DNA from: a virus | Taxonomy: Duplodnaviria; Heunggongvirae; Uroviricota; Caudoviricetes | Direction: 5' to 3' (one strand) | Length of the DNA: 13,094 bases | IMG/VR virus record: IMGVR_UViG_2703718822_000001 | Location: 1 to 13,094 of that record | Shown here: piece by piece, positions 1 to 13,094 of the stretch | How positions within the stretch are numbered: the stretch's first letter is position 1 | Layout: every line of letters begins with the position of its first letter | Notes under the pieces: model-generated | The model's database searches: none | Seen by the model: only the letters and a program-made list of their open reading frames with translations | Told to the model about the DNA's origin: nothing | Program-made: the position numbers and the translations under genes

Positions 1-318
1 ATCTTCAAACGCATACGAAGCCATAATTCGCATCACTGCCGGTTTTATTTCTGCCGGGAGTTTTCTTAACGCCGCCACGCGATCACACCGACTGAGTGCA
101 TATTCTGTCAGCAATTCTGTTGCCCGCTCTCTGTCATTCATACTAATGCCCATTTTCCCAAGGAACGCAGAAAACCCCATCTCAGCCCGATTCTGTGTCA
201 TGCCCTGCGCGGCCATCACATCAGTGATACTCAGCGCATCTTTTGACGTTGAGGCCGATGCATCAGTCAGGCCGGGGGATTTTGGGGAGTAGTATTTCGG
301 TAAATCTTCCAGTTTCAT
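1..318 (-). CDS. late-gene antiterminator Q (phage 82 / QuuQ-like), N-terminal ~106 aa; rest of gene lies beyond the window start
   Basis: Minus-strand frame opens with ATG at 316-318, overlapping the rusA stop as ATGA, and stays open to position 1. Translation MKLEDLPKYYSPKSPGLTDASASTSKDALSITDVMAAQGM... resembles the N-terminus of phage 82-type Q proteins as I recall them. Position directly downstream of rusA is the canonical Q slot. Not in the ORF track because it is truncated by the window edge. Confidence 0.7.
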   Translation of the reverse strand, partial: MKLEDLPKYYSPKSPGLTDASASTSKDALSITDVMAAQGMTQNRAEMGFSAFLGKMGISMNDRERATELLTEYALSRCDRVAALRKLPAEIKPAVMRIMASYAFED

Positions 319-689
319 TTTTTGACCTGCTCTTCAAGCATTATGGGGTAAATCTTCACCCCCAGACGTCCACCAGATACTGGCTGACCACGTACAATAT
401 TGATTTCATCAAACTGCTCGTCATCAATAAGCACTCCCGCATGCGTCAGCGCATCCAGCGGTGCTTTCAGAATATTGTCCAGGTCGCGACGACGCTTATC
501 CGGTGGCTCTGCAATAATTTTTATTGCCAGCCGTCCGGACAGGCTTAATTTCAGTCGCAGCTGGCGAACAATAAGCGCCACTGCCCGGCGATAACGCTCC
601 CCTGCTTTTGATACAAAATATGTGCTGCCACGGCGTCTCCAGTAAGTGTTCACCGTCGGCGGGTAAGGTAAAACCAAATCTATGAGCAT
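315..689 (-). CDS. rusA: RusA-family Holliday junction resolvase
   Basis: 124-aa ORF. Motifs PDKRRRDLDN and SGGRL match the RusA catalytic region (E. coli RusA has PDRRRRDLDN and KGGRL). RBS GAGGTG about 6 nt upstream of the ATG at 687-689. Sits in the nin-region slot next to Q. Confidence 0.85.
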   Translation of the reverse strand: MLIDLVLPYPPTVNTYWRRRGSTYFVSKAGERYRRAVALIVRQLRLKLSLSGRLAIKIIAEPPDKRRRDLDNILKAPLDALTHAGVLIDDEQFDEINIVRGQPVSGGRLGVKIYPIMLEEQVKK

Positions 690-701
690 CAGTCACCTCT
701 T

Positions 702-1751
702 TTACCCGAGCACGCCAGTCGCAAAGGCGTGATCAAGAAAACGAAAAATTAACTCAATCTGAGAGCCGTACTTTTTCTCAAACTCCAGCGGGTCTGCATG
801 AAGTTCGTTGTGGTGCTCCCGGCACAACGGTAGCGTGAAAATATCGTGGGCCTTTGTCCCCATTCCCCCCTGACCATGACCAATCAGGTGATGCGGATCG
901 TCAGCAGGCTTACCACAACACGCACACGGCTGTGTCTTTACCCAGCGCGTGTATTTCTCATTTACCCAACGGCGACGTTTAGGTCGCCTCATGAAAGATT
1001 CCGGAGACTCCGGATCAACGGCAATGCTGAGCACCGCCTTTTCCTGTGGTGAGGGTTGTTGCTGGTGGACGTGAGGCAACGGCGCAAGATTTTTTGTGCG
1101 CTGATTCAGTATGCTGGTGGCGGTCTGCTCTCCCGGTACGATGTCGCTCTCACGGTATACTGAGCGGATTTTTTCCGCTGGTAATCCCAGCGAACGACGC
1201 GCTACTGCCTCAGGTAGTGCATCCACCACCTGATTGCAGACCGCCCACCAGGATAATTCGGCCAGCGATAACTCCCTCTCCTGCGTACCGCTTATTGCGT
1301 GACGGATGACGTCAATCATCCAGGCAACCAGATTCTGCTGAGCAAGTTGCGCCAGTGAATCAGATGTCTGGTCGCGCAGCTGGTTGTCGCAGTGCCAGCA
1401 CAACACCATCGCGCCGGAACCGTAACGATGTATGACAGTTTCGCTGTGATGATAATCGCCATGTGACCACTGGCAGGATTTCACGTGACGTAATAACCAG
1501 TCAGACAGTGCACCAGCACCACCTACTGCACGAATTACCCGCTCATCGCTGAAAAATGGCAGTAATGATTTATCCTCAGCCAGCGGCTGGCGAACGGCAG
1601 GAACGACTCCGGACGACAGACCGCGCATGCTTTTCGGTTCCGGCTCCACCAGCACCCTGCAGCAATGAAAAACCGGCAGTGATTCGCGACCAGGTTTAAG
1701 GACCACCAGGCCAAGTTCCGGTACCAGAACAGGTCTAAGTAATATCCGCAC
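702..1751 (-). CDS. ydfU: YdfU-like prophage protein (DUF968 type) with C-terminal HNH-like Cys/His motif
   Basis: 349-aa ORF, GTG start with GGAGG RBS 5 nt upstream. C-terminal CACCGKPADDPHHLIGHG...LCREHHNELH looks like an HNH/zinc-finger nuclease motif; N-terminal half has a CWHCDNQ / HGDYHH cluster. Same length as K-12 Qin YdfU as I recall it, and adjacent to Q as in Qin. Confidence 0.55.
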   Translation of the reverse strand: MRILLRPVLVPELGLVVLKPGRESLPVFHCCRVLVEPEPKSMRGLSSGVVPAVRQPLAEDKSLLPFFSDERVIRAVGGAGALSDWLLRHVKSCQWSHGDYHHSETVIHRYGSGAMVLCWHCDNQLRDQTSDSLAQLAQQNLVAWMIDVIRHAISGTQERELSLAELSWWAVCNQVVDALPEAVARRSLGLPAEKIRSVYRESDIVPGEQTATSILNQRTKNLAPLPHVHQQQPSPQEKAVLSIAVDPESPESFMRRPKRRRWVNEKYTRWVKTQPCACCGKPADDPHHLIGHGQGGMGTKAHDIFTLPLCREHHNELHADPLEFEKKYGSQIELIFRFLDHAFATGVLG

Positions 1752-1752
1752 G

Positions 1753-2085
1753 TTACCTCCAGATGCGCTGCTGGAATGTGCGGGACGGACGCGGTGGGCG
1801 TTCGGAGTAAGGGAGTCTGACTGAGATTATCCAGTGACGGTAGTCGAGGCTAAGAGCTTTCTTAACCTCGTATCCGCGCCTGCGGTAACACTGAATTATC
1901 CATTCAGCCTGCTCTTCAGTGCATGGAGGATGCTGGAACCAGTCTGATTTGAATGCATGAGAACGCCGCCCGTGCCTGCAGGCAGGAGCGGCAGAGTTAT
2001 CCGAATTGTAAAATCTGGTATCGTGCGCCATCGGTTGTCTCTGCTGGCGCAGCAGGTGCCAGTTGTTCAGGCTGGCGTGTGGCAA
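1753..2085 (-). CDS. hypothetical protein (start uncertain; TTG at 2085 or ATG at 2029-2031)
   Basis: ORF-track ORF whose stop abuts the ydfU-like start, suggesting translational coupling. No strong RBS at either candidate start and no recognisable motifs. Confidence 0.35.
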   Translation of the reverse strand: MPHASLNNWHLLRQQRQPMAHDTRFYNSDNSAAPACRHGRRSHAFKSDWFQHPPCTEEQAEWIIQCYRRRGYEVKKALSLDYRHWIISVRLPYSERPPRPSRTFQQRIWR

Positions 2086-2129
2086 TATTGTCTCTGATTT
2101 CTGTTGTCGTCAACCGCTTCTGTGCTTAC

Positions 2130-2162
2130 TCACTTGATGAGTGAAACGATTAACTTTACTAT
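2130..2162 (+). promoter_or_regulatory. candidate sigma70 promoter with overlapping palindromic operator for the 2213-2548 gene
   Basis: -35-like TTGATG (2134-2139), 17-bp spacer, -10-like TACTAT (2157-2162). Palindrome TCACT-TGATG-AGTGA at 2130-2144 overlaps the -35. Confidence 0.35.
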
Positions 2163-2212
2163 TTACTTAACAGGTTTTTCCTGTACCACGATTCCCCATA
2201 CAGGAGGCCAAC

Positions 2213-2548
2213 ATGAGTGATGACAAAAAAATTGAGTTCAGCACCAGTGATGTGTTGAATGCTTTACTCCATCGCCAGCAGAACATGCAACACCTGGCGA
2301 CACAGGAAAGCGTTGATAACCTGCGTCGTGAGATTGATGGTCGATTCAATTCTTCACAGGACAACGTTGATAACTTCCGACGTGAGGTCGATAGTCGCTT
2401 TAATTCTTTGCAAAACCAGCTAATATCGGTTGATAAGCGCCTGGACAAGCTGGAAACCAAGTTTGATCGACTCCAGTGGTTTATTGTTGCTGCCGCTCTG
2501 GCTCTCATCTTCAAGGATTACATCTTCAGGATTATTGGTGCTCAGTAA
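2213..2548 (+). CDS. small tail-anchored coiled-coil protein with internal tandem repeat (moron; FlxA-position or XhlA-like architecture, family not established)
   Basis: 111-aa ORF with strong AGGAGG RBS 6 nt before the ATG. Two tandem 18-aa repeats (ESVDNLRREIDGRFNSSQ and DNVDNFRREVDSRFNSLQ) encoded by a diverged 54-bp tandem DNA repeat. C-terminal hydrophobic anchor WFIVAAALALIF. Convergent with the surrounding minus-strand operon; own promoter and terminator. Confidence 0.7.
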   Translation: MSDDKKIEFSTSDVLNALLHRQQNMQHLATQESVDNLRREIDGRFNSSQDNVDNFRREVDSRFNSLQNQLISVDKRLDKLETKFDRLQWFIVAAALALIFKDYIFRIIGAQ

Positions 2549-2550
2549 AT

Positions 2551-2578
2551 CCGGCCCCGTTTTCGGGGCTATCTTTTC
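2551..2578 (+). terminator. Rho-independent terminator
   Basis: Stem GCCCCG (2554-2559), loop TTTT, stem CGGGGC (2564-2569), followed by T-rich tail TATCTTTTC, immediately after the TAA stop at 2546-2548. Confidence 0.7.
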
Positions 2579-2733
2579 GCATCTGCATCAGACTTTCCAC
2601 CAACTTTTTATTGCCAGCTTCTGCAATCTACTCTACCTTATGTGCGTCAGAACGGCGCAATGCGCTCGCCTGAGATACGTTTACTTGCCATGGTAACAAC
2701 AGGTAACAGCAATTGTTGTTTCTGTTTTGTTTG

Positions 2734-2817
2734 TTATCCCCAGCGGCAAATCGAATACACCACCAGCGCCACCGCCATCGCAATTCCTACCGTTGTGAAT
2801 GCTTCAGGCCAGGTCAT
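2734..2817 (-). CDS. candidate 27-aa single-TM micropeptide, translationally coupled to the DUF551 gene
   Basis: ATG at 2815-2817 overlaps the DUF551 TGA stop (ATGA). Translation MTWPEAFTTVGIAMAVALVVYSICRWG, then stop. Below the ORF-track size cutoff; hand-translated. Confidence 0.3.
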   Translation of the reverse strand: MTWPEAFTTVGIAMAVALVVYSICRWG

Positions 2818-3371
2818 TGATTCACCTCCTGCGGCGGTTCTGGTAGCGGCATCCAGTGGGTTGCTTGCCTAAGATCATTACCCGGACTAACTGCTATACC
2901 TCCGCGCCGGAACGTGCCTCCGAGATAGCGTGCGGAATATATTAATGGCCCTGCCTCGCTATCGATATTCATCGAAATAAGCACGTTCTGGCTCTTTTCA
3001 GGCATTCGCTCAGTACAGCTTATCCAGCCATCCGGAGTTATCGGAGATCTGGTTGACGTTTCCGAGATTTCCCGAAAATTGTTGGTTGACGAATTCTTAT
3101 TTTCCCGAAAGTTTCCGGCCTGAAGCATGGCGACGCGGCAGGCGTTCCAGCCATCAGCATATGTTTTAGTTACACCGTCGAGATGGCAGGTAAGCAAATC
3201 CATTTCATCAGGCACTACCATTGCTATCGGCTCTGCTTCCAGTGATGCCAGCGCGATACGAAACACATTAGCCAGCAGGCTGTCTGAAGACTTGTTATCG
3301 TGCGCCGAGTCGCTCAGGAAGCCTGTGATGTATGATTTAATCTCCGCGCGTTCTCTGGTAATAGTGCTCAT
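2814..3371 (-). CDS. DUF551-domain phage protein
   Basis: 185-aa ORF with AGGAA RBS 8 nt upstream of the ATG. C-terminal W/P-rich signature DGWISCTERMPE...THWMPLPEPP, typical of the lambdoid DUF551 domain as I recall it. Confidence 0.65.
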   Translation of the reverse strand: MSTITRERAEIKSYITGFLSDSAHDNKSSDSLLANVFRIALASLEAEPIAMVVPDEMDLLTCHLDGVTKTYADGWNACRVAMLQAGNFRENKNSSTNNFREISETSTRSPITPDGWISCTERMPEKSQNVLISMNIDSEAGPLIYSARYLGGTFRRGGIAVSPGNDLRQATHWMPLPEPPQEVNQ

Positions 3372-3717
3372 ATCAGTTTTCCTTATACGGATTAATTTTA
3401 TTGTGCAGTGCGCTGAATGATTCCCATGTCACATCGGTATATAGCTCAATAACTGGTTCAAATGTCCTTCCAATTATCCAGACCAGTAATAGCGGGGATA
3501 TCGGTATCATCAACACTATAAACAGAATGAAAAACAGAAACTCTGTTGTTCTGCTCTTTCGTGGGTAATTTTTTCTAAATAATGTTTCATTTCTTACCGC
3601 CCTTTCGGGCGGCCTCCTGATGTTCTGAGGGTGCAGGAATCCCTCCGGTTAAGGATTTAATAAAAATCGTTTCTGATTTAAATCTTCAGTATTTAGTTGT
3701 TAGTTGGTTTATCGCCT

Positions 3718-4029
3718 TTATGCTTCAGCCTTATTTCGCAACCAGACACAAACCGGGCCATCTTCCGTATCATGAATGGAACCAATAAACCAGCCATCGC
3801 CCTCTGGTCGTTCCGGTTCCCATGCTGAAATATCAGGGCCATCTGCGTCCAGGTTAAAATCATCTTCATCCATAGTGCAGATAGTCCACTGAAGATTATT
3901 TGCCTCCATCCACGCGTTAAATTCTTCCGTTGAAATATTCTCCCGACCATCACAGAATTTTTCATATTCAGGATGTGTCCAGTAGCCATATTCGTCACGA
4001 ACTACCGGCATTTCTTTAATTTCACTCAC
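3718..4029 (-). CDS. hypothetical acidic phage protein
   Basis: 103-aa ORF, GTG start at 4029 preceded by AGGAGG at 8-nt spacing (alternative in-frame ATG at 4009-4011). Acidic, Trp-rich. Start overlaps the upstream gene stop. Confidence 0.5.
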   Translation of the reverse strand: MSEIKEMPVVRDEYGYWTHPEYEKFCDGRENISTEEFNAWMEANNLQWTICTMDEDDFNLDADGPDISAWEPERPEGDGWFIGSIHDTEDGPVCVWLRNKAEA

Positions 4030-4249
4030 TGTTAACCTCCTGCAACGCTACACGATACGCCTTCTTTATCCACGCCTTACTGCCATATAATTTCGTCTTC
4101 ATAATAAACACACCTGCACGACTCGCCGATATCCCCGGACAGGTTAACAGCACAGCATCCACCACACGGTTATGCTTCCGGAACTCCATTACAGTACTGC
4201 TGATAAGCACCTGCCCCACCGGGCCGTAATCCTGATACAGGATTTTCAC
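4022..4249 (-). CDS. hypothetical protein
   Basis: 75-aa ORF, GTG start at 4249 preceded by AGGAGG at 8-9 nt; GTGA overlap with the stop of the upstream gene. Confidence 0.45.
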   Translation of the reverse strand: MKILYQDYGPVGQVLISSTVMEFRKHNRVVDAVLLTCPGISASRAGVFIMKTKLYGSKAWIKKAYRVALQEVNSE

Positions 4250-4500
4250 GCAGACACCCTCCTGTCGAAATAAACGTAGTTATTCACTGTGCGCAACGGC
4301 ATTCCGAATTTTCTGGCGATTTCTCTCCTCGACACGCCACGCTGATGCTGCTGTCGCGCCAGCTCAATATCACTCTGCGGATATTTTGCTGACTGGTGAT
4401 AATCACCCCGTAACATCATACTAATACCCAGTTCCCGCGCTTTCGTTCTGACCGCAGCCTCACTACGACCAATAAGCATCCCGATGCATTCCACCGTCAT
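4246..4500 (-). CDS. small DNA-binding protein with two HTH-like segments (NinH-like style)
   Basis: Chosen start is the ATG at 4498-4500 (MTVECIGMLIGRSEAAVRTKARELGI...). The ORF-track start at 4650 is a GTG that would overlap the upstream gene by 90 nt. Second HTH-like segment QRGVSRREIARKFGMPLRTVNNYV. Confidence 0.45.
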   Translation of the reverse strand: MTVECIGMLIGRSEAAVRTKARELGISMMLRGDYHQSAKYPQSDIELARQQHQRGVSRREIARKFGMPLRTVNNYVYFDRRVSA

Positions 4501-4559
4501 TGTTCCCGCACACTGCCGGAGTATCAGGATTTCCGCCCGGCACCACGTCTTCCAGCCAC

Positions 4560-5264
4560 TCACTGTTGCTGCTCTCTGGTGGTGGTAATATCCCGGAGAA
4601 TATCCCTGTGTTTGTTCAGTTCCCGCAGCGCGGCACAGACACGCTCCCACTTCTGGACATGACTTTTCGCCCGGCGCAGCTCGCGGTTAGCCACATTCAG
4701 CGATGGTAGAATCAGGTCATCTGCTTTCGTTTCGGTAAACGATGGCAGCGACTGCACAATGTCCGCCACAGTATCTGTTTTAATTTCTTCCTGTGTCGCC
4801 GCTTCCTGTACCGGTAACGCAACTCCTGCTGGCTGAGGAAAGGCTTTACCATCCGTTTCCGCTACGGATGCAGCTTCCGGCTCTGCCGGTAAATCAGCGC
4901 CCGGTATGCAGTAACGAAATTTACCACCCTGATTCACGCGAATCAGACGACCTTTGCTGATTGCCATCGCCAGTGATGAATTCGCCCGGCGGGAGGTAAT
5001 CCCGAACATTAACGCCAGTTCGTCAGCCGACTGAGGACCATGCTGTTCAATCGCGTTAATCAGCATCTCTGCAGTGGTTTTTGGGGCCTCTTCAGTTGCC
5101 TCACTCGTCAGCCACCACATCGACCCCTTGTTATCAGCTTCGCCACGACGCTTCAGCTTCCAGAGTTCGGTAACAGCATCGTCACGGCTGATTTCAAGAC
5201 GGGCTGCAATCTCGTGCGACGAGGCTTTTTTCAGTGCTTTCAGTGCGTCAAAAACGGTTTCCAT
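4560..5264 (-). CDS. hypothetical protein with tandem winged-helix-like N-terminal domains
   Basis: Start moved to ATG 5262-5264 ([13 protein letters not shown]...), which has a strong GGAGGA RBS 8 nt upstream and sits in the gap after the DnaC-like stop. Two consecutive wHTH-like segments, acidic/Pro-rich linker, C-terminal coiled coil. Confidence 0.6.
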
Positions 5265-5286
5265 TAAATTTTCCTCCGGATAAAAA

Positions 5287-6039
5287 TTACTTCGCCACAC
5301 TCAGATGGCTGACATTGGGACGCCAGCTTTCCCAGTTAAAACTCACCCAGCGACCACCGTTCATGGTCATCCGGTCCATAATCCTCTCACCAAGAAGCGT
5401 GCTCATTGCGGCATGATTCAGGTTTGTCAGCATCCCGACACTGCGCAGTGATGCCGTCCGGCGATCAACAATCTGGTGCAGTACCACCTGCTCGTTTTTC
5501 GTCTCACGCTGGATGCCAATTTCGTCAAGAACCAGGAGGTCCACTTCGCACAGTTCACGCAAAAATTTTTCCCCTGACAGCCCGTCATCGTAGCTGGCAT
5601 GTAACGCGCTCATCACATCCGCCACAGTGACCACTATCACGGATTTACCGGCCTTCAGCAGACGATTACCCACAGCCGCCGCCAGATGATTTTTTCCGGT
5701 TCCCGGATTCCCGCTGAACACGAAGTTTGTATAACCGGTTATCATTTCCTCAGCGATGGATTTGGCCTGGCTCAGCGCATGTTTCTGCCCGTCGTTCCGC
5801 ACCTGGTAATTCGCGAACGAACATTTGCGGTGCAGCGGCTGGATGCCCGAACGGTTCAGGATTTTTTCCACCCGCAACTGACGATTCCGGCGGTTAATCT
5901 CCTCGCAGTATTTCCGGCCTTCGGCAAGTTGCCACTCGCGCCACTCCTCCGGCGTACAGTACGGCACGGTTGCGCGTTCAGAAGCCAGTCTGCGGATGCG
6001 TTCCAGAACACCAACTGCAACTGTCGCGATATCTTTCAT
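5287..6039 (-). CDS. DnaC/IstB-type AAA+ replicative helicase loader (lambda P analogue; YdaV-like)
   Basis: 250 aa. Walker [16 protein letters not shown] and Walker B-like DLLVLDEIG. Immediately downstream of the O-like initiator. Confidence 0.85.
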
Positions 6040-6045
6040 GGTCAG

Positions 6046-7014
6046 TTACCCCCTGAAACCCGGTGGAATTTCAGTGTCCGGTTCAGAAATATGATTCACG
6101 CAACTCTGCGCAGGCCCACGCCCAAGACGAATGACCAGTTCATCCCATTTTTCGCGCAGTTTTGCCGGACTCATGATATTTTTTACCCAGAACGGATCCC
6201 GCTGCACCCGACTGAACATTTCACAAATCTGCCGGTGACTGCGGCCATCCAGCATGCGCATCATCCGGACATCGTTAGCCCATGTCGTCCAGTTTGGCTC
6301 TCTGGGGCGAGAAACCTCACCATCATCACTGGCTGCGTGTTCATACAGCGCAACAACACGCCCCCAGATCCACTGCGCACAGGTAATATCATCACGGGTT
6401 CCCCACTGTCGCTTCGGCACATTCCACGTATGCGCATCAGGGTGTTTATCCAGAAAGCGTTCAACCGGAGATGATTTTTTTTCGTCCGGAAGTGAAACGT
6501 CCGGACAAGAAGATCTTTTATCTGACGGATCAAGTTTTAATACTGACGGATCGGGGTCAATCATCGCCCCCCTAATCGGCTGTTTTTTATCAATGGTTGA
6601 CCCCTCAGAATTTGACGGGTCAACCATTGAGGGGTCAATATTTGACGGGTCAACTGTTAACGGGTCATTTTTTGCCGGGCTAATTTTTCTTTTCGGTTTA
6701 TATGCCTCACGCGCCGCCGCTGCCGCTGCTTCGAGTTTTTCCACATTAAGCCGATAGATATTGCTTACGTTACGCCCACCGATCTTACGCTCTTCCTTCG
6801 TCAGCCAGCCCTCTTTCGCCAGTTCTGCAATCGCAGATTTCACGGTGGATTCACTTCTGGCACCGATCTGACGCCGGATCGTTTCCATAGCAGGCCATGA
6901 CACCCCCTCGTCATTGCTGTAATCTGCAAGACGGGCCATTACTGCCACCCTTGATAAGATCATGCCAGTGAAGGCGCATCCTTCCCAGACAAGACCATGA
7001 AGCTTGCTGCTCAT
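6046..7014 (-). CDS. replication initiator (lambda O analogue / YdaU-like) with origin embedded in its linker region
   Basis: ATG at 7012-7014 with GGGGG RBS 5 nt upstream (the ORF-track start at 7029 is a GTG). N-terminal winged-helix-like domain, central D/P/S-rich repetitive linker (DPLTVDPSNIDPSMVDPSNSEGSTID...) that is encoded by the iteron DNA, then a C-terminal domain. Confidence 0.8.
   Translation of the reverse strand: MSSKLHGLVWEGCAFTGMILSRVAVMARLADYSNDEGVSWPAMETIRRQIGARSESTVKSAIAELAKEGWLTKEERKIGGRNVSNIYRLNVEKLEAAAAAAREAYKPKRKISPAKNDPLTVDPSNIDPSMVDPSNSEGSTIDKKQPIRGAMIDPDPSVLKLDPSDKRSSCPDVSLPDEKKSSPVERFLDKHPDAHTWNVPKRQWGTRDDITCAQWIWGRVVALYEHAASDDGEVSRPREPNWTTWANDVRMMRMLDGRSHRQICEMFSRVQRDPFWVKNIMSPAKLREKWDELVIRLGRGPAQSCVNHISEPDTEIPPGFRG
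6550..6706. repeat. candidate replication origin: iterons plus AT-rich region inside the O-like gene
   Basis: At least four direct repeats of (T)TGACGGGTCAA-like units at about 15-bp spacing (6611-6667: tttgacgggtcaacc / attgaggggtcaata / tttgacgggtcaact / gttaacgggtca), with further copies at 6553-6560 (ggggtcaa) and inverted at 6597-6604 (ttgacccc). Flanked by AT-rich ttttttgccgggctaatttttcttttcggtttatat (6667-6706). Confidence 0.6.
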
Positions 7015-7036
7015 AAAACCCCCGAACACCGTGCTT

Positions 7037-7462
7037 TTAGTGCATCACCACAGCATTCCCTGCCGGGCCGCCGCGATTTATCTGGTCATACAAAACGACC
7101 GCTGACGCAACAAAATCGTCGACATCCTTCACCAGCCGATCCCGCCGTTCGACAATCTCCCGGTAGTACTCAGAACTGTGACTGCGCATACGGGCCACCA
7201 GCAAAGGCGGCATCGCCTTTTCGATCGCCGGTAACAGAGCCTGAATTTTTTCAACAGCATCAGGGGTGTCTTTATCCAGCCAACGGAAAATTTTCTGGGT
7301 ATTACGAGCCAGGGCCTCAGGATGAGTGTCGTCGTACAGTTCCGGGAACGTCATCCCCAGTTCGAAATAAGTCCGGGCTATTTCAGCTGCGGGAACTTTC
7401 TCACCGTCAGGATATGCCCAGGCATTCATCGCCATGCGGATGTGCTCATGCTTGATTTTCAT
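7037..7462 (-). CDS. ydaT: YdaT-family protein (proposed CII-like regulator in Rac-type immunity regions)
   Basis: 141 aa, starts MKIKHEHI and ends ...VVMH, matching my recollection of Rac YdaT (about 140 aa). ATG overlaps the Cro-like stop (ATGA at 7459-7462). Third gene position as in racR-ydaS-ydaT. Confidence 0.55.
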   Translation of the reverse strand: MKIKHEHIRMAMNAWAYPDGEKVPAAEIARTYFELGMTFPELYDDTHPEALARNTQKIFRWLDKDTPDAVEKIQALLPAIEKAMPPLLVARMRSHSSEYYREIVERRDRLVKDVDDFVASAVVLYDQINRGGPAGNAVVMH

Positions 7463-7713
7463 GAATCAACTCCCAACAGCTTTTTCGTAGTAGTTTTATT
7501 TCTGCCAATAGTTAAAATTGCATCGGCAGAAAATAATCCGTTTGATGCATGAGCGATTTTTTCAGCATAATTTGTTTCGCCGGTATATTCAGTGCGAGGC
7601 AATTTTCCGTTATCCATCCATTTGTAGATTGCTCTTTGGCTGACACCACAAACGTCGGCCACAACAGAAACGCGAACAGTTTTGATTACATCTTCAAGTG
7701 TTTTCTGGTTCAT
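7459..7713 (-). CDS. Cro-like HTH repressor (DicC/YdaS family)
   Basis: Start set at ATG 7711-7713 (MNQKTLEDVIK...), with GAGGGTG RBS 6 nt upstream. The ORF-track start at 7785 would leave only 8 bp before the divergent repressor gene. HTH segment VADVCGVSQRAIYKWMDNGKLP. Confidence 0.7.
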   Translation of the reverse strand: MNQKTLEDVIKTVRVSVVADVCGVSQRAIYKWMDNGKLPRTEYTGETNYAEKIAHASNGLFSADAILTIGRNKTTTKKLLGVDS

Positions 7714-7792
7714 ATCACCCTCACAATGTGAACTTTGAGTACACTCTATAACAGAACTGACAGTACATTCAAGAGCGAATATCATTGAACTT
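7714..7792. promoter_or_regulatory. divergent immunity promoter/operator region (PR/PRM analogue)
   Basis: 79-bp AT-rich gap between the divergent Cro-like and repressor starts. Repeated GTACA-core motifs: GAGTACACT (7737-7745) and AGTACATT (7760-7767). Confidence 0.6.
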
Positions 7793-8212
7793 ATGGTTCA
7801 TGAAGATAAAGCGCGTAAAGAGTTCGCCAGTAGGCTTGCGCTAGCCTGTGAAAACGCTGGTTATGAACAACATGGAAGGCAGGCAGAAATTGCCCGTCGA
7901 ATGAAATTAACACCAAAAGCGGTTAGCAAATGGTTTAATGGCGAAACAATTCCTCGCCGAGAGAAATTAAGGGAATTAGCAACACTCATTGGAACAACAC
8001 CAACCTATCTTTTGGGAGAGGATACAGAAGAAAGTGGACAGGTACGTTTCTATCAGGAGTTAAATCCAAGACAAAAAATCATCATTGATCTTCTGGACGA
8101 GCTCCCTGACAGTGAGACAGATGAACTTTTAAAAACTCTTGAGGAGAAAAAACAAAAGTACAATGCAATTTACGAAGAGTTAGCACGAAAGAAAAAACAA
8201 AAAGCCTCTTAA
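7793..8212 (+). CDS. dicA: DicA-like (RacR-like) XRE-family HTH immunity repressor without a peptidase S24 domain
   Basis: 139 aa. HTH region GRQAEIARRMKLTPKAVSKWFNGETIPRREKLRELATLIGTTPTYLLGED. C-terminal LNPRQKIIIDLLDELPDSETDELL... resembles the DicA C-terminus as I recall it. Divergent from the Cro-like gene and followed by ydfA/B/C-dicF-dicB as in Qin. Symbol is by synteny plus resemblance. Confidence 0.7.
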   Translation: MVHEDKARKEFASRLALACENAGYEQHGRQAEIARRMKLTPKAVSKWFNGETIPRREKLRELATLIGTTPTYLLGEDTEESGQVRFYQELNPRQKIIIDLLDELPDSETDELLKTLEEKKQKYNAIYEELARKKKQKAS

Positions 8213-8275
8213 ACCAGCATAAATCCGGTAGCGTCCCCCTCCGGGTTTGTGTTTCACTTTTTCCCATCTCATTTT

Positions 8276-8335
8276 TTTACACATAAAATGTACTTAAAGT
8301 ACTTTACAACACTGAACATAAAGTACATTATATAC
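8276..8335 (+). promoter_or_regulatory. candidate repressor-controlled promoter of the downstream dicB-type operon
   Basis: AT-rich region with -35-like TTTACA (8303-8308) and -10-like CATTAT (8326-8331), overlapped by GTAC-core operator-like repeats ATGTACTTAAAGTACTTT (8287-8304) and AAGTACATT (8321-8329). The 8-mer AGTACATT is identical to that at 7760-7767. Confidence 0.4.
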
Positions 8336-8510
8336 ATACCAACCCACCCCGCCCCACAGAACGCAGGGCAATACTTCGAGTTACCAGGCAGTGGTCAGGG
8401 GTTAAGTAGCCAGCCCGAGGCGTAAGAACATGACGGCAGGGTTCAACTTTAATAACTATGCAGCAGGTTTTTGTTCCGCTACCCCGGCGTTAAGGGGAAA
8501 TGAGGTCAGC

Positions 8511-8666
8511 ATGGATACTATCGATCTTGGCAACAACGAATCTCTGGTGTACGGCGTGTTTCCAAACCAAGACGGTACGTTCACCGCGATGACGTATACC
8601 AGAAGCAAAACGTTTAAAACCGAAGCTGGCGCGCGTCGCTGGCTGGAAAGAAATTCAGGTGAGTGA
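8511..8666 (+). CDS. ydfA: YdfA-like small protein (51 aa)
   Basis: Start set at ATG 8511 (MDTIDLGNNESLVYGVFPNQ...), which has a GAGGT RBS at 5-nt spacing; the ORF-track start at 8430 has a weaker RBS. Resulting 51 aa equals the K-12 YdfA length, and it is the first gene after the DicA-like repressor. Confidence 0.55.
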   Translation: MDTIDLGNNESLVYGVFPNQDGTFTAMTYTRSKTFKTEAGARRWLERNSGE

Positions 8667-8667
8667 T

Positions 8668-8796
8668 ATGGATTTCGACGCAATCATGGAAAAGGCTTAC
8701 GAAGAATACTTCGAAGGCCTTGCCGAAGGCGAAGAAGCTCTCAGCTTCAGTGAGTTTAAACAGGCGCTTTCCAGTTCGGCAAAATCTAACGACTGA
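8668..8796 (+). CDS. ydfB: YdfB-like small acidic protein (42 aa)
   Basis: Hand-translated: MDFDAIMEKAYEEYFEGLAEGEEALSFSEFKQALSSSAKSND. ATG 1 nt after the ydfA-like TGA. 42 aa equals the K-12 YdfB length. Below the ORF-track cutoff. Confidence 0.55.
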   Translation: MDFDAIMEKAYEEYFEGLAEGEEALSFSEFKQALSSSAKSND

Positions 8797-8825
8797 TAAG
8801 CGAAGCGGCACCGCGAGGAATCAGT

Positions 8826-9041
8826 ATGCAGAAACGAGAACCCGTCATCATCGCACCAGACTATACCGAGGATGAAATTTACGAATGGATGTGCGGAAAG
8901 ATACGCGCCATTAATGACCTGAAGCAGGCCGCTGACTACAAAGAGCGCCTCTCTAAAGAACTGGTGTCAGCGGAGCAGGATATTACCACTCTGGCAAAAA
9001 GCGCGGCATTAAACGTTTCGCGAGTGATTGAAAACTACTGA
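8826..9041 (+). CDS. ydfC: YdfC-like small protein (71 aa)
   Basis: 71-aa ORF with GAGGAA RBS. Third small gene of the operon; K-12 YdfC is 72 aa as I recall. Confidence 0.55.
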   Translation: MQKREPVIIAPDYTEDEIYEWMCGKIRAINDLKQAADYKERLSKELVSAEQDITTLAKSAALNVSRVIENY

Positions 9042-9130
9042 CCAATGAGCTCAAGTAGTTCTCCGCAGATGAAGTGCGTGCGCCGGACACGGATAAACCT
9101 CCGGCATGCTCTTTAACAATCTGGATATTC

Positions 9131-9577
9131 CTAACCACAAAGAAATCGCATCAATTTGGATTTTGTGGGCAACTTCTCGTGTTGTTCGATGGAGACGCCT
9201 ATTTTGATCTGTGTTTTTAAGATCGCAATATCTTTAAGTGATGACCAAATATGATCATCTGTTTTTCCCAGAGTTTTTAACTGAATTTTCAATTCCGAAT
9301 CAGAATATTTTTCTGCATCATCAAAAAGCTGCAAATATTCTGCGGATTTTCTCATGGCATTACCTGACTTTTGTCCGAATCCATAAATCGTTTGGTCGGT
9401 TGCGATCACAACAATAAAAACGCCAGAAATTTCCGGAATGAATCCGCCAATGACAGATGAACCGAGGATAATACTCACTACTGAGAGAAGTTTATCGAGA
9501 CGACCAGTCGCTACAGAAAACAGTTGCTCAAGAAAATAGCCATATAAAATTCTGTCAAGAATATCATCCCGGTCCAT
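9131..9577 (-). CDS. reverse-oriented two-TM membrane protein; candidate superinfection-exclusion / abortive-infection effector (SieB-like position, SLATT-like topology)
   Basis: 148-aa ORF, ATG at 9575-9577 with AGGTGA RBS. Two adjacent hydrophobic helices (LLSVVSIILGSSVIGGFI and ISGVFIVVIATDQTIYGF) followed by about 78 aa of soluble, charged C-terminus. Locally AT-rich compared with neighbours. Opposite orientation to the dicA-dicB operon and lying where K-12 Qin, as I recall, has only a short ydfC-dicF spacer. Confidence 0.7.
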   Translation of the reverse strand: MDRDDILDRILYGYFLEQLFSVATGRLDKLLSVVSIILGSSVIGGFIPEISGVFIVVIATDQTIYGFGQKSGNAMRKSAEYLQLFDDAEKYSDSELKIQLKTLGKTDDHIWSSLKDIAILKTQIKIGVSIEQHEKLPTKSKLMRFLCG

Positions 9578-9636
9578 ACACCATCACCTGCTTGTGCTCT
9601 TTGCTCTGTCATATGATTTCCTTGGATCGTTGGGGA

Positions 9637-9672
9637 TATCCAGATTATACAGATTTCCTGTCGTTGGGGAAT
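9637..9672 (-). promoter_or_regulatory. candidate promoter for the 9131-9577 gene
   Basis: Perfect -10 TATAAT on the minus strand (complement of 9644-9649), preceded by TG; weak -35 TTCCCC (complement of 9667-9672) at 17-bp spacing. About 65-nt leader to the ATG. Confidence 0.35.
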
Positions 9673-9926
9673 GACGGAAACCACCTCGCCTGACGTGGTT
9701 AAAAGCAGGCACACAACACGAAAGCGCACGGCGAAGTTCGTCTCACTGCACGGTGTCGTTAAATTTAATTCGACCGTGCGCTTCCGGTTGTGGCGCCCCG
9801 CGAAATGGCGCGGCGGTAAGTATGGCGGGGGTGGGAGGGACGCCTTTCCCCGTTGAGGACACCGGGTTGTCAGGTTGACCATACGCTTAAGTGACAACCC
9901 CGCTACAACGCCCTCTGTTATCAATA

Positions 9927-9984
9927 TTCTGGTGACATTTGGCGGTATCAGTTTTACTCCGTGACTGCTCTGCCGCCCTTTTTT
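9927..9984 (+). ncRNA. dicF: DicF small RNA (ftsZ-targeting) with intrinsic terminator-like 3' end
   Basis: ttctggtgacatttggcggtatcagttttactccgtgactgctctgccgccc followed by a run of six T (9979-9984). This matches the E. coli DicF sequence as I recall it (UUUCUGGUGACGUUUGGCGGUAUCAGUUUUACUCCGUGACUGCUCUGCCGCCC) apart from about two substitutions near the 5' end. Lies 170 bp upstream of dicB as in Qin. Confidence 0.85.
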
Positions 9985-9987
9985 AAA

Positions 9988-10139
9988 AGTGAATTTTGTG
10001 ATGCGGTGAATGCGGCTCAGCGCACGCGGAACAGTTAAAACCAAAAACAGTGTTATGGGTGGATTCTCTGTATCCGGCGTTAATTGTTAACTGGTTAACG
10101 TCACCTGGAGGCACCAGGCACCGCATCACAAAATTCATT
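9988..10139. repeat. long inverted repeat (18-bp perfect core, about 21 bp extended) bracketing 110 bp between dicF and dicB
   Basis: 9991-10008 GAATTTTGTGATGCGGTG is the exact reverse complement of 10119-10136 CACCGCATCACAAAATTC; pairing extends to 9988/10139 with one G-T. The loop contains GTTAAC-TG-GTTAAC (10087-10100) and CCTGG-aggca-CCAGG (10104-10118). Confidence 0.5.
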
Positions 10140-10154
10140 GTTGAGGACGCGATA

Positions 10155-10343
10155 ATGGAAAAGTTATCATGTAATGCCAGCACGTCTGAACTTCGTTTCG
10201 AAATTGGCGTTATCACTGGAGACAAAACATTTATTGAAGACGCCATTAAGCAGAGAAAACTCGAGCAGGACCTGTTAAATGAAGTATGCATTCCTTCAAT
10301 GCTGGCTCGTCTGGACCTGCTGCAAAAAGGATATAAACAATGA
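10155..10343 (+). CDS. dicB: DicB cell-division inhibitor (MinC-dependent FtsZ antagonist)
   Basis: 62 aa: MEKLSCNASTSELRFEIGVITGDKTFIEDAIKQRKLEQDLLNEVCIPSMLARLDLLQKGYKQ. Closely parallels E. coli DicB as I recall it (same length; FEIGV...TEDAI..RK...LLN..CI.SMLARL). GAGGA RBS. Stop overlaps the ydfD-like ATG (ATGA). Confidence 0.85.
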   Translation: MEKLSCNASTSELRFEIGVITGDKTFIEDAIKQRKLEQDLLNEVCIPSMLARLDLLQKGYKQ

Positions 10344-10531
10344 ATACAACATTTGCACTCGTTCTGACAGTTTATCTTGTTTCCGGCGAATCTCTTGAGC
10401 TGGTGACTGGCTTATACGGTTCAATGAAAGAATGCATGGCTGCAGCAGCAGAACAAAAAATTCCCGGTAACTGTTATCCGGTAGATAAAACTACTCACAC
10501 TAATAATAACGAAATACCGGCAGGACTTTAA
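10340..10531 (+). CDS. ydfD: YdfD-like small protein with N-terminal hydrophobic segment (reported lysis-type protein in Qin)
   Basis: 63 aa, equal to the K-12 YdfD length, directly after dicB. N-terminal TFALVLTVYLVSG hydrophobic helix. Confidence 0.55.
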   Translation: MNTTFALVLTVYLVSGESLELVTGLYGSMKECMAAAAEQKIPGNCYPVDKTTHTNNNEIPAGL

Positions 10532-10624
10532 AACAGCACCGTAATTAATATCCGGTTTCATTTTTATATGCCAGCAATGGCAGGGATTTGTTCACCCTTA
10601 AATCTGTAATGAGGTTAAAACAAA

Positions 10625-13094
10625 ATGAGTAAAGTCTTTATTTGCGCCGCCATTCCGGACGAACAGGCAATAAAAGAAGAGGGCGCAGTTGCTGTAGCCA
10701 CTGCCATTGAAGCCGGTGATGAACGCCGCGCCCGTGCCAAATTTACCTGGCAATTCCTGGAGCAATATCCTGCTGCTCAGGACTGCGCTTATAAATTTCT
10801 TGTCTGCGAAGATAAACCCGGCATGCCCCGCCCTGCTATCGACTCCTGGGATACCGAATATATGCAGGAAAACCGCTGGGATGAGGAATCCGCTTCCTTT
10901 ATTCCGGTCGAACCAGAATCCGATCCTATTAACGTCAATTTTGACAAGCTGTCCCTTGAAGTACAGAACGCGGCCCTAGTTAAGTTCGGTACATGTGAAA
11001 ACATCACCGTTGATATGGCGATTGACGCGCAGGAATTACTGCAAGAAGACGTGGCTACCTTTGACGGGCATATCGTTGAAGCACTGATGAAAACGCCTGA
11101 AATTAACGCTATGTATCCGGAACGCAAACTGTTCGCTATCGGATGGGTTAAACACAAATGTAAGCCGGGTACCAAATGGCCCGAAATTCAGGCTGAATTA
11201 CGTAACTGGAAAAAACGGCAGGACGCAGAGCGCAAAGAGACTGGAAAATACACGTCTGTTGTTGATCTTGCCCGCGCCAAAGCCAACCGACAGCACACTG
11301 AAAACCCAGCAGAAAAAATCCCTCCTGTAACTGCCGCCATTCATCGCGAATACAAGCAGACATGGAAAACCCTGGACAGGGAGCTGGCCTACTATCTCTG
11401 GCCTGGTGATGCGGATGCCGGAAACATTGACGGCAGCATCCTTCGCTGGGCTAAAAATGAAATTATCGCCAGAGATCGCGAAGACTGGAAGCGCATCTCC
11501 GCATCAATGCGCAAACAACCTGATGCGCTTCGCTACAGCCGCCAGACTATTTTTGGCCTTGTCCGTGAACGCCCGATCGACATTCACAAAGATCCCGTGG
11601 CACTGAACAAATACATCACTGAATACCTGACTACAAAGGGCGTGTTTGAAGATGACGAAGGAACAAATCAGGGCACAGCTAATACTCTCTCGTCGCCAGT
11701 ACCAGAAACTGACGCAGTGGAAACGGCAATTCAGGACAACGAAAAAACCGAATGCAAAGTGGAAGTCGAATCATCTGTAGAGCGTGAGGGGCCGTTCTAC
11801 TTCCTCTTCACCGACAAGGATGGCGAAAAATACGGTCGCGCAAACAAACTTTCTGGTCTGGATAAGGCACTGGCTGCCGGGGCTACTGAAATCACGAAAG
11901 AAGAATATTTCGCCCGCAAAAACAGTACATACTCAGGTTCACAACAAAATACTGGTGCATCTGACACGACCGCACAACCAGAGCCGGTAAAAGTTACCGC
12001 TGACGAAGTAAACAAAATTATGCAGGCAGCCAATATCAGCCAGCCTGACGCCGATAAGTTGCTTGCTGCCTCTCGCGGAGAATTTGTTGCAGGGATTAGC
12101 GACCCGAATGATCCGAAATGGGTTAAGGGGATCCAGACCCGCGATTCTGTAAACCAGAACCAGCATGAATCGGAACGGAACTACCAAAAAGCGGAACAAA
12201 ACAGCCCAAATGCGTTACAAAACGAGCCAGAAACGAAACAGCCTGAACCAGTGGCGCAACAGGAAGTGGAAAAAGTCTGCACCGCCTGCGGTCAGACCGA
12301 CGGCGGCAACTGCCCTGATTGTGGCGCGGTGATGGGCGACGCAACATACCAGGAAACATTCGATGAAGAGTATCAGGTTGAAGTTCAGGAAGATGATCCG
12401 GAGAAAATGGAAGGCGCTGAACATCCACACAAGGAGAACACTGGCGGCAATCAGCATCACGATAGCGATAATGAAACTGGCGAGACGGCAGATCACTCAA
12501 TTAAGGTGAACAGTCATCAAGAAATCACATCCACCAGCAGGACGTGTGACCATCTAATGATCGACCTTGAAACCATGGGAAAAAATCCTGATGCCCCGAT
12601 CATCTCAATAGGTGCAATATTTTTCGATCCGCAAACCGGAGATATGGGACCGGAATTTAGTAAGACTATCGATCTGGAAACTGCTGGCGGAGTCATTGAT
12701 CGGGACACCATTAAATGGTGGCTTAAGCAATCACGCGAAGCGCAATCTGCCATTATGACCGATGAAATCCCGTTAGATGATGCACTGTTACAATTGCGGG
12801 AATTTATCGACGAAAACTCCGGTGAATTTTTTGTTCAGGTCTGGGGAAATGGAGCCAACTTCGACAACACGATTTTGCGCCGTTCATACGAACGGCAGGG
12901 GATCCCCTGCCCGTGGCGTTACTACAACGATCGCGATGTACGCACAATCGTTGAGCTGGGGAAAGCCATAGACTTCGATGCCAGAACGGCTATTCCATTC
13001 GAAGGTGAGCGCCATAATGCACTTGATGACGCCCGTTACCAGGCAAAATACGTTTCAGTTATCTGGCAAAAACTGATCCCGAGTCAGGCTGATT
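10625..13094 (+). CDS. large early-left-operon protein (at least 823 aa, 3' end beyond window) with C4 zinc ribbon and DEDDh 3'-5' exonuclease domain; YdfE/RecE-position protein
   Basis: I hand-checked codon by codon: ATG at 10625 (GAGGT RBS 9 nt upstream) and no in-frame stop through 13093. Absent from the ORF track only because it runs off the window. Zinc ribbon CTACGQTDGGNCPDCG at about 12283-12330. Exonuclease motifs: Exo I MIDLETMG (about 12557-12580), Exo II GNGANFDNTIL, Exo III HNALDDARYQAKY (His codon 13013-13015). Confidence 0.8.
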   Translation, partial: MSKVFICAAIPDEQAIKEEGAVAVATAIEAGDERRARAKFTWQFLEQYPAAQDCAYKFLVCEDKPGMPRPAIDSWDTEYMQENRWDEESASFIPVEPESDPINVNFDKLSLEVQNAALVKFGTCENITVDMAIDAQELLQEDVATFDGHIVEALMKTPEINAMYPERKLFAIGWVKHKCKPGTKWPEIQAELRNWKKRQDAERKETGKYTSVVDLARAKANRQHTENPAEKIPPVTAAIHREYKQTWKTLDRELAYYLWPGDADAGNIDGSILRWAKNEIIARDREDWKRISASMRKQPDALRYSRQTIFGLVRERPIDIHKDPVALNKYITEYLTTKGVFEDDEGTNQGTANTLSSPVPETDAVETAIQDNEKTECKVEVESSVEREGPFYFLFTDKDGEKYGRANKLSGLDKALAAGATEITKEEYFARKNSTYSGSQQNTGASDTTAQPEPVKVTADEVNKIMQAANISQPDADKLLAASRGEFVAGISDPNDPKWVKGIQTRDSVNQNQHESERNYQKAEQNSPNALQNEPETKQPEPVAQQEVEKVCTACGQTDGGNCPDCGAVMGDATYQETFDEEYQVEVQEDDPEKMEGAEHPHKENTGGNQHHDSDNETGETADHSIKVNSHQEITSTSRTCDHLMIDLETMGKNPDAPIISIGAIFFDPQTGDMGPEFSKTIDLETAGGVIDRDTIKWWLKQSREAQSAIMTDEIPLDDALLQLREFIDENSGEFFVQVWGNGANFDNTILRRSYERQGIPCPWRYYNDRDVRTIVELGKAIDFDARTAIPFEGERHNALDDARYQAKYVSVIWQKLIPSQAD

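Follow-up and report, generated by a model that had tools for sequence, protein, structure and literature searches.

The window analysed here, the whole 13,094-nt stretch of DNA at positions 1 to 13,094 of the IMG/VR virus record IMGVR_UViG_2703718822_000001 (Caudoviricetes), belongs to the Qin/DicF group of lambdoid prophages, and the locus under study is a plus-strand gene for a 111-residue protein lying among minus-strand genes of its early-right region (Table 1). The best Escherichia coli match covers 92% of the window at 93% identity and is annotated with Q, RusA, DUF968, DUF551, replication genes and YdaS/YdaT, together with a DicA-like repressor, ydfA/B, dicB, an exonuclease and an integrase. 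The neighbours RusA, DUF968 and DUF551 are all assigned by Pfam to the minus strand, and the early-right operon therefore runs from right to left; the gene is thus antisense to it, as a first reading made from the letters alone (the sequence-only reading) had stated, being convergent with the upstream part of the operon and divergent from its downstream part. That the open reading frame (ORF) is a real gene, another statement of that reading, follows from its divergence being mostly synonymous (16 synonymous and 3 non-synonymous codon differences from the 94%-identical relative L003, with 16 of the 20 base changes at third codon positions) and from the 117 homologous clusters retrieved by a word-indexed search. 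An antisense ORF of 115 amino acids with a TTG start (2167-2514) was rejected as a mirror-frame artefact, the substitution pattern fitting the plus frame.

The gene belongs to an exchangeable stretch of DNA. The closest whole-window relative, L001, aligns over 1702-2079 (82%) and 2731-3400 (99.7%) and has a hok/gef module in the slot, homology stopping at 2079 and restarting at 2731, and the gene-bearing loci have the entire 2080-2730 stretch in common. Near and distant BLASTN searches find this DNA in 6 of 5,426 complete E. coli genomes, where the slot is constant (after the small ORF beside DUF968, on the opposite strand) and is kept across prophages that differ in their Q genes, immunity regions and nin genes; strain C8 has the gene and hokD side by side. 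No match to the protein was obtained by tblastn against 50,697 phage records. Present or absent between conserved neighbours and provided with its own terminator, the locus is a self-contained accessory-gene cassette ("moron"), reverse-oriented in the nin-type region of a Qin/DicF-like lambdoid prophage. The strong ribosome-binding site described in the sequence-only reading is present, as is the intrinsic terminator, whose hairpin (2553-2570) has a 7-bp stem with 6 GC pairs and a 4-nt loop in the terminator scan and an energy of -14.1 kcal/mol (z = -2.6 versus shuffles).

The product is a predicted C-tail-anchored protein without a signal peptide, made of five parts: an N-terminal helix, the LATQES junction, a coiled-coil stalk, two 18-residue repeats within this stalk, and a C-terminal anchor. 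An AlphaFold2 model built on the family alignment predicts a helix at residues 11-24, a loop at 25-30 and a single helix over 31-110 (mean predicted local distance difference test score, pLDDT, 76.6). The family N-terminus is conserved (KKIEFSTSDVLNALLH), with A17, L18, L19 and H20 nearly invariant and H27 invariant, and leads into the motif H27-x-A29-T30-Q31-E32, in which A29, T30, Q31 and E32 do not vary among 39 diverse members. The C-terminal end is also strongly conserved (KFDRLQWFIVAAALALIFKDY), and the anchor (DRLQWFIVAAALALIFKDY) hardly differs between E. coli, Photorhabdus and metagenomic members with other N-termini. The middle varies in both length and sequence, the distance from motif to anchor ranging from 26 to 117 residues across the family (median 57). 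The hydrophobic periodicity of the window protein peaks at 3.55-3.6 residues, and the stalk spacing is 3-4-4-7 in each 18-residue unit, i.e., a hendecad plus a heptad, followed by regular heptads into the anchor; other stalks of the family are tandem repeats of 7 (KRFEQVD) or 11 (RRETKEGIDTI) residues.

The diverged 54-bp tandem repeat and the repeat-built coiled coil of the sequence-only reading are both recovered. Tandem Repeats Finder reports 2.0 copies of the unit with 81% matches and no indels, a direct count gives 44 identical positions out of 54, and the two protein units, TQESVDNLRREIDGRFNS and SQDNVDNFRREVDSRFNS, are identical at 12 of 18 residues. A one-copy allele of 93 amino acids (L002), present in two genomes, is separated from the window gene by a deletion of exactly 54 bp and one further nucleotide, and a three-copy allele (P0001) encodes 129 amino acids. 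These one-, two- and three-copy alleles of E. coli indicate that the repeat expands and contracts in frame, and the length of the stalk apparently changes through repeat slippage or unequal recombination.

Homologs are found in E. coli, Salmonella, Photorhabdus, Erwinia, Serratia symbiotica, Vibrio and metagenomes, which places the family in Enterobacterales and Vibrionaceae. An exhaustive profile search retrieved 314 representatives at E <= 1e-10, and the wider relatives among the best profile matches follow the pattern ...LLHxxQHxATREEL..., then repeats, then ...KFDRLQWLI...LKDY. Scans of the protein and 39 family members against Pfam, NCBIfam, PHROG and PADLOC returned only sub-threshold generic coiled-coil matches, a Foldseek search of the AlphaFold2 model against the PDB gave zero matches, as expected for one long helix, and no study of the family was found in the literature on DUF1640, XhlA and tail-anchored prophage proteins.

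The genomic settings of these homologs are diverse. In Salmonella, the gene lies in a P22-like early-left region, where it is the sole plus-strand gene among minus-strand neighbours. Homologs were identified by tblastn on 42 Vibrio plasmids and 4 Arsenophonus plasmids; on the Vibrio plasmids they stand alone beside ArdC-like, ArdA-type antirestriction and DinI-like genes and a topoisomerase, the V. vulnificus homolog lies on a plasmid with a T2SSE-type ATPase gene and an SLT-domain gene, and one further homolog is on a phage-plasmid-like contig. The Erwinia homolog has a HicB-like antitoxin gene 26 nt downstream and insertion sequence elements nearby. In Photorhabdus, the homolog is a fixed chromosomal gene in its behaviour, lying directly downstream of icd in all 11 species checked (L027, L028, L030-L033, L035-L038 and L040), with species-specific repeat numbers. 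A motif-based scan of 185,579 species genomes yielded only 21 loci (Photorhabdus, Erwinia, Pantoea, Yersinia-labelled metagenome-assembled genomes and Vibrio). On a metagenomic contig (L021, 173-535), the homolog is immediately upstream of pilB-pilC-pilD-coaE-zapD, the usual position of pilA; this adjacency may be a coincidence, the contig ending there.

The nearest known kind of protein is the DUF1640/CCDC90-like architecture (PF07798), which includes human MCUR1 and CCDC90B, yeast Put6/Put7 and many bacterial and phage proteins. In both families, a head is followed by an A-T-[K/Q/R]-x-x junction, a coiled-coil stalk and a single C-terminal membrane segment, whereas the DUF1640 head of about 40 residues (FDTLKFV...AGxxxxQAEA...SH) is replaced here by a different 27-residue N-terminal module. 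The family profile matches PDB 6h9l (DUF1640/CCDC90-like, three chains deposited), with ATQES placed on ATKED (E = 3.6e-4), and the LATQES motif aligns with the ATKRD of DUF1640 heads. According to Hartmann et al. (eLife 2016, PMC4786415), the C-terminal stalk of DUF1640 membrane proteins begins with a beta-layer motif, for which the consensus is [aliphatic]-A-T-K-[polar]-[DE]. L-A-T-Q-E-S fits four of these six positions, some family members have ATKES and wider relatives ATREE, and V34 and L37 occupy a and d positions, so that LATQESVDNL keeps the register of VATKRDLDDL. Against PF07798, wider relatives reach 17.7-22.9 bits in the correct register, and P0138 (8.8e-5, profile positions 1-71) and P0183 (1.1e-4, positions 70-168) also match it, all below the Pfam gathering cut-off of 33.5 bits. 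Moreover, five natural chimeras (P0138, P0260, P0262, P0264 and P0265) join a canonical DUF1640 head (FDTLKFV...QAEAFSDAV.ESH...VATKRDLDDLRKD) to a stalk and anchor nearly identical to those of the family, and the two families occur about 3 kb apart on the same Vibrio plasmids, as on pXMO116-1 of Vibrio parahaemolyticus (L025), with a canonical DUF1640 gene and a homolog at 1796-2065 and 4986-5264. Our reading is that the family has the DUF1640 architecture and exchanges modules with DUF1640, with a different N-terminal module and membership not shown.

The anchor that is near-identical between genera, the invariant head and junction, the rapidly varying stalk and the mobile-element settings, among them the slot also used by hok and plasmid regions with antirestriction genes, together suggest a specific membrane partner and a head held at a tunable distance. 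From its motif, its register and its DUF1640/CCDC90-like similarity, the protein would form a parallel homotrimer with a beta-layer at LATQES and present its head on the cytoplasmic side of the inner membrane, a fixed distance away from it. Insertion would be of the C-tail-anchored type with a cytoplasmic N-terminus, considering the missing signal peptide and the few residues past the anchor. The gene layout suggests that in the lysogen, with pR under repression, a weak sigma-70 promoter of its own may drive the gene, and that after induction this transcription would be opposed by read-through of the early-right operon in the antisense direction. The prophage, plasmid and chromosomal settings have no partner gene in common, and the protein therefore most likely acts alone, its partner at the inner membrane probably being a conserved one of the host or of an incoming element. 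A role in exclusion, defence or establishment, to the advantage of the mobile element, is tentatively favoured ahead of action as an accessory of lysis, as a toxin or as a ribosome tether. A bolder proposal is that the family represents a new class of mobile-element inner-membrane proteins that act alone, in which a trimeric alpha/beta coiled-coil stalk would serve as an adjustable spacer tuned by slippage of 7-, 11- and 18-residue repeats; the small conserved head would then intercept or block a conserved machine in the cytoplasm or close to the membrane, e.g., an entry or processing complex for incoming DNA or a host defence sensor, and the variation in length would record an arms race among mobile elements. 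We consider this proposal improbable.

Several points weigh against this account. The candidate promoter (TTGATG-17-TACTAT) matches the consensus at 8 of 12 positions, below the threshold of the consensus scan, which reports sites from 9 of 12 up. It is invariant in 9 E. coli loci, as is most of the flank, and the Salmonella and Photorhabdus orthologs have 9/12 sites 33-40 nt before the ATG, these being consensus matches only. Of the promoter and terminator attributed to the gene at the outset, the terminator thus stands and the promoter amounts to a sub-threshold match, which is the weakest part of the gene description. The palindrome over the -35, put forward as a sign of dedicated regulation, is not regarded as an operator and is probably not meaningful: of 9 homologous loci, 3 retain it intact and 6 have it broken, and about 0.85 repeats with such 5-bp arms are expected by chance per 181-nt intergenic region.

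The anchor is open to another objection. The best 19-residue Kyte-Doolittle window reaches 1.93 at residues 90-108, above the usual threshold of 1.6, and includes the charged K101, D102 and R106; in the E. coli-type anchor, a fully hydrophobic stretch of 12-14 residues leads into K-D and an amphipathic end. More distant homologs have unambiguous hydrophobic tails of 18-22 residues, Vibrio-type members have clean ones of about 18 or more residues ending in a lysine or a short polar tail, and because of these tails an anchor is a feature of the family. The C-terminal membrane segment of the sequence-only reading is therefore retained, a full span in the E. coli-type allele being probable, not certain.

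As to the likeness with DUF1640, the junction has Q in place of K and S in place of D/E, and the window protein gives no PF07798 match at E <= 1. The PDB sequence profile search returns mostly generic trimeric coiled coils (HA2, coronavirus S2), with 6h9l as the one informative match, and that its best matches are chains of trimeric assemblies is weak evidence on a homotrimer. An hhalign comparison of the family with pure DUF1640 proteins having their own anchors yields a probability of 28%, which is not significant, and a head-only comparison 1.6%, with the motif alone aligned; these values do not establish homology with DUF1640, and the stalk and anchor common to the family and the DUF1640 chimeras may reflect recombination, not descent. 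Finally, PADLOC gives no significant match for the protein, and the genomic setting is the sole link of the gene to exclusion, defence or establishment. With these points taken into account, the probability that the structural and genetic description of the gene and protein is correct as a whole is put at about 0.55.

Among other roles, a small membrane toxin or addiction element, functionally equivalent to hok/sok and restrained by antisense transcription, is unlikely. The cassette stands in for the hok/gef of the closest relative, in the same exchangeable slot of Qin-type prophages that hokD occupies between the DUF968-side ORF and DUF551, its product is small and membrane-anchored, operon transcription would be antisense to it, and the HicB-like neighbour in Erwinia could be read in the same sense. 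However, 111 amino acids with a soluble stalk of about 60 residues are unlike the 50-residue Hok, the ribosome-binding site is strong and unoccluded, strain C8 keeps the gene beside hokD, and the constant position next to icd in all the Photorhabdus species checked also argues against a toxin. Hok/Gef was rejected as an identification, with no Hok match in Pfam and no hok/sok signature in Rfam; an Rfam scan of 2000-2900 under gathering and E-value thresholds found nothing relevant, leaving a hok/sok remnant or a known small RNA unsupported, and both protein and regulation of hok/sok are unrelated to those of the family gene.

Slightly less likely still is an XhlA-type lysis protein, which would cooperate with a holin and endolysin or modulate the timing of lysis, as XhlA of the Bacillus prophage PBSX (PF10779). 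The sequence-only reading had raised this likeness, and the overall architecture is indeed shared, both proteins being small and phage-borne with a coiled coil at the N-terminus and a membrane segment at the C-terminus; a distant homolog (P0104) has a precomputed PF10779 match, the UniRef name of P0149 is "Haemolysin XhlA", and the best-scoring PHROG among those labelled "hemolysin" reaches E = 0.11. XhlA has been reported as essential for PBSX lysis (PMC6834076), which counts in favour of such a role. Membership was nevertheless rejected, with no PF10779 match of the window protein in Pfam at E <= 1 and no lysis cassette around the gene. The lysis genes of the prophage lie beyond Q, whereas this gene is in the nin region, away from holin and endolysin and antisense to the operon, with a candidate promoter and a terminator; a lysis gene with an independent promoter would endanger the lysogen, and homologs occur on plasmids and chromosomes, with no lysis genes near those on plasmids and beside icd.

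Tethering of the kind attributed to YqjD, ElaB and YgaM, in which the N-terminus would bind a cytoplasmic machine (the ribosome or another complex) held at the membrane by the anchor, has an equally low probability. To our knowledge, the family has no sequence resemblance to these proteins, and they are not known to vary in stalk length; both considerations count against tethering. They are encoded by chromosomal stationary-phase genes without repeat-length polymorphism, and neither Pfam nor NCBIfam gives a match of the window protein to their DUF883 family at E <= 1, or to another family. In favour of tethering are the similar size and topology, YqjD, ElaB and YgaM being helical, cytoplasm-facing, ribosome-inactivating proteins of about 100 amino acids with a single C-terminal anchor that act via their N-terminus (bioRxiv 10.1101/2024.08.16.608256). 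The N-terminal 33 residues are also the most conserved soluble part of the family.

A comparable layout is known from the Bdr (Borrelia direct repeat) proteins, which are carried on cp32 prophage plasmids and combine a conserved N-terminus, 11-residue tandem repeats of varying copy number and a C-terminal hydrophobic anchor. They have no significant sequence similarity to the family and differ in phylum and in repeat sequence; a relative (P0259) scores 17.9 bits against the Pfam KID-repeat, below the cut-off of 20.8. Lastly, a FliA (sigma-28)-dependent gene like flxA of Qin, suggested earlier by position, is very improbable and refuted as homology: the size (111 versus 110 amino acids), the anti-operon orientation and the broad region of a Qin-like prophage agree, whereas there is no BLASTP alignment at E <= 100 and no PF14282 match, Qin flxA lies in a different slot (between relB and ydfW), yet also on the anti-operon strand, and no sigma-28 consensus within 3 mismatches occurs near the gene, the single match in the window (6731-6757) being at chance level.

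Other features surround the gene. The predicted 5' leader contains a hairpin, ACAGG-TTTTT-CCTGT, and the divergent intergenic region of about 181-182 bp also holds a promoter-like site on the minus strand, which could re-start transcription of the 92-amino-acid ORF, DUF968, RusA and Q downstream of the cassette. On the other side, the ATG of a 27-amino-acid hydrophobic ORF, MTWPEAFTTVGIAMAVALVVYSICRWG, overlaps the TGA stop of DUF551 (ATGA overlap), with AGGAGG upstream; it is kept in 8 related loci, has no match in Pfam or NCBIfam, and probably encodes a translationally coupled small membrane peptide. Between this ORF and the terminator of the gene, 7 related loci (L002, L003 and L013-L017) carry the hairpin CCCCGGATTGATAGTCCGGGG between A5 and T5, which looks like a bidirectional terminator. 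This hairpin is absent from the window, where a 40-nt gap at about 2726-2731 coincides exactly with the mosaic joint to the right of which the sequence is L001-like (99.7% identity from 2731), and operon transcription would therefore enter the gene in antisense with no dedicated terminator in its way. Elsewhere in the window, Rfam identifies a full-length DicF small RNA (77 bits), followed downstream by dicB and a ydfD-like (DUF1482) gene, as judged by comparison with the annotated relative L001. A 148-amino-acid ORF opposed to the surrounding early-left genes, hypothetical in the annotated relative and without any family match, is a second moron-like gene in the window.

Table 1. Positions of the features at the locus and elsewhere in the window.
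Feature	Position	Strand	Details
RusA	315-689	minus	Pfam
DUF968	702-1751	minus	Pfam
92-amino-acid ORF	1753-2031	minus	
Exchangeable cassette	2080-2730		gene with promoter region and terminator, plus about 160 nt of non-coding DNA downstream
Promoter-like site	2084-2113	minus	TTGACG-18-AATATT (9/12)
Inverted repeat	2130-2144		TCACT-N5-AGTGA; 5-bp arms, overlaps the -35
Candidate sigma-70 promoter	2134-2162	plus	-35 TTGATG 2134-2139, 17-nt spacer, -10 TACTAT 2157-2162
Leader hairpin	2170-2184	plus	invariant in 9 loci
Shine-Dalgarno AGGAGG	2202-2207	plus	5 nt before ATG; invariant in 9 loci
Coding sequence	2213-2548	plus	111 amino acids plus stop, ATG start
N-terminal module, residues 1-27	2213-2293	plus	conserved; contains helix 11-24 (SDVLNALLH...)
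Head/stalk junction L-A-T-Q-E-S, residues 28-33	2294-2311	plus	resembles beta-layer motif
54-bp tandem repeat, 2 copies	2301-2408	plus	encodes two 18-residue stalk units
C-terminal membrane anchor, residues 87-108 (LQWFIVAAALALIFKDYIFRII)	2471-2536	plus	hydropathy; helical end of long helix
Terminator	2553-2580	plus	GGCCCCG-TTTT-CGGGGCT, then T-rich ATCTTTTCGC; invariant in 8 loci
27-amino-acid ORF	2734-2817	minus	
DUF551	2814-3371	minus	Pfam
148-amino-acid ORF	9131-9577	minus	
DicF small RNA	9927-9978	plus	

The gene is thus an uncharacterised accessory gene whose product is a variant on a known architecture; a new mechanism is not demonstrated, and the gene is of moderate interest because of its repeat-length polymorphism and its spread across mobile elements. 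If the present description is true, the family is easily recognisable by its H-x-A-T-Q-E-S motif, repeat stalk and WFIVAAALALIFK-type anchor, a combination not captured by Pfam, NCBIfam and PHROG models, and would link prophage cargo with Vibrio plasmid ArdA/ArdC regions, some of these plasmids being from shrimp and shrimp-disease isolates, and with the icd-adjacent gene of Photorhabdus. It would also provide a compact bacterial system for the role of the beta-layer junction and of stalk length in DUF1640/MCUR1-type membrane proteins, in which the natural one-, two- and three-repeat alleles make a comparison of length and function straightforward.

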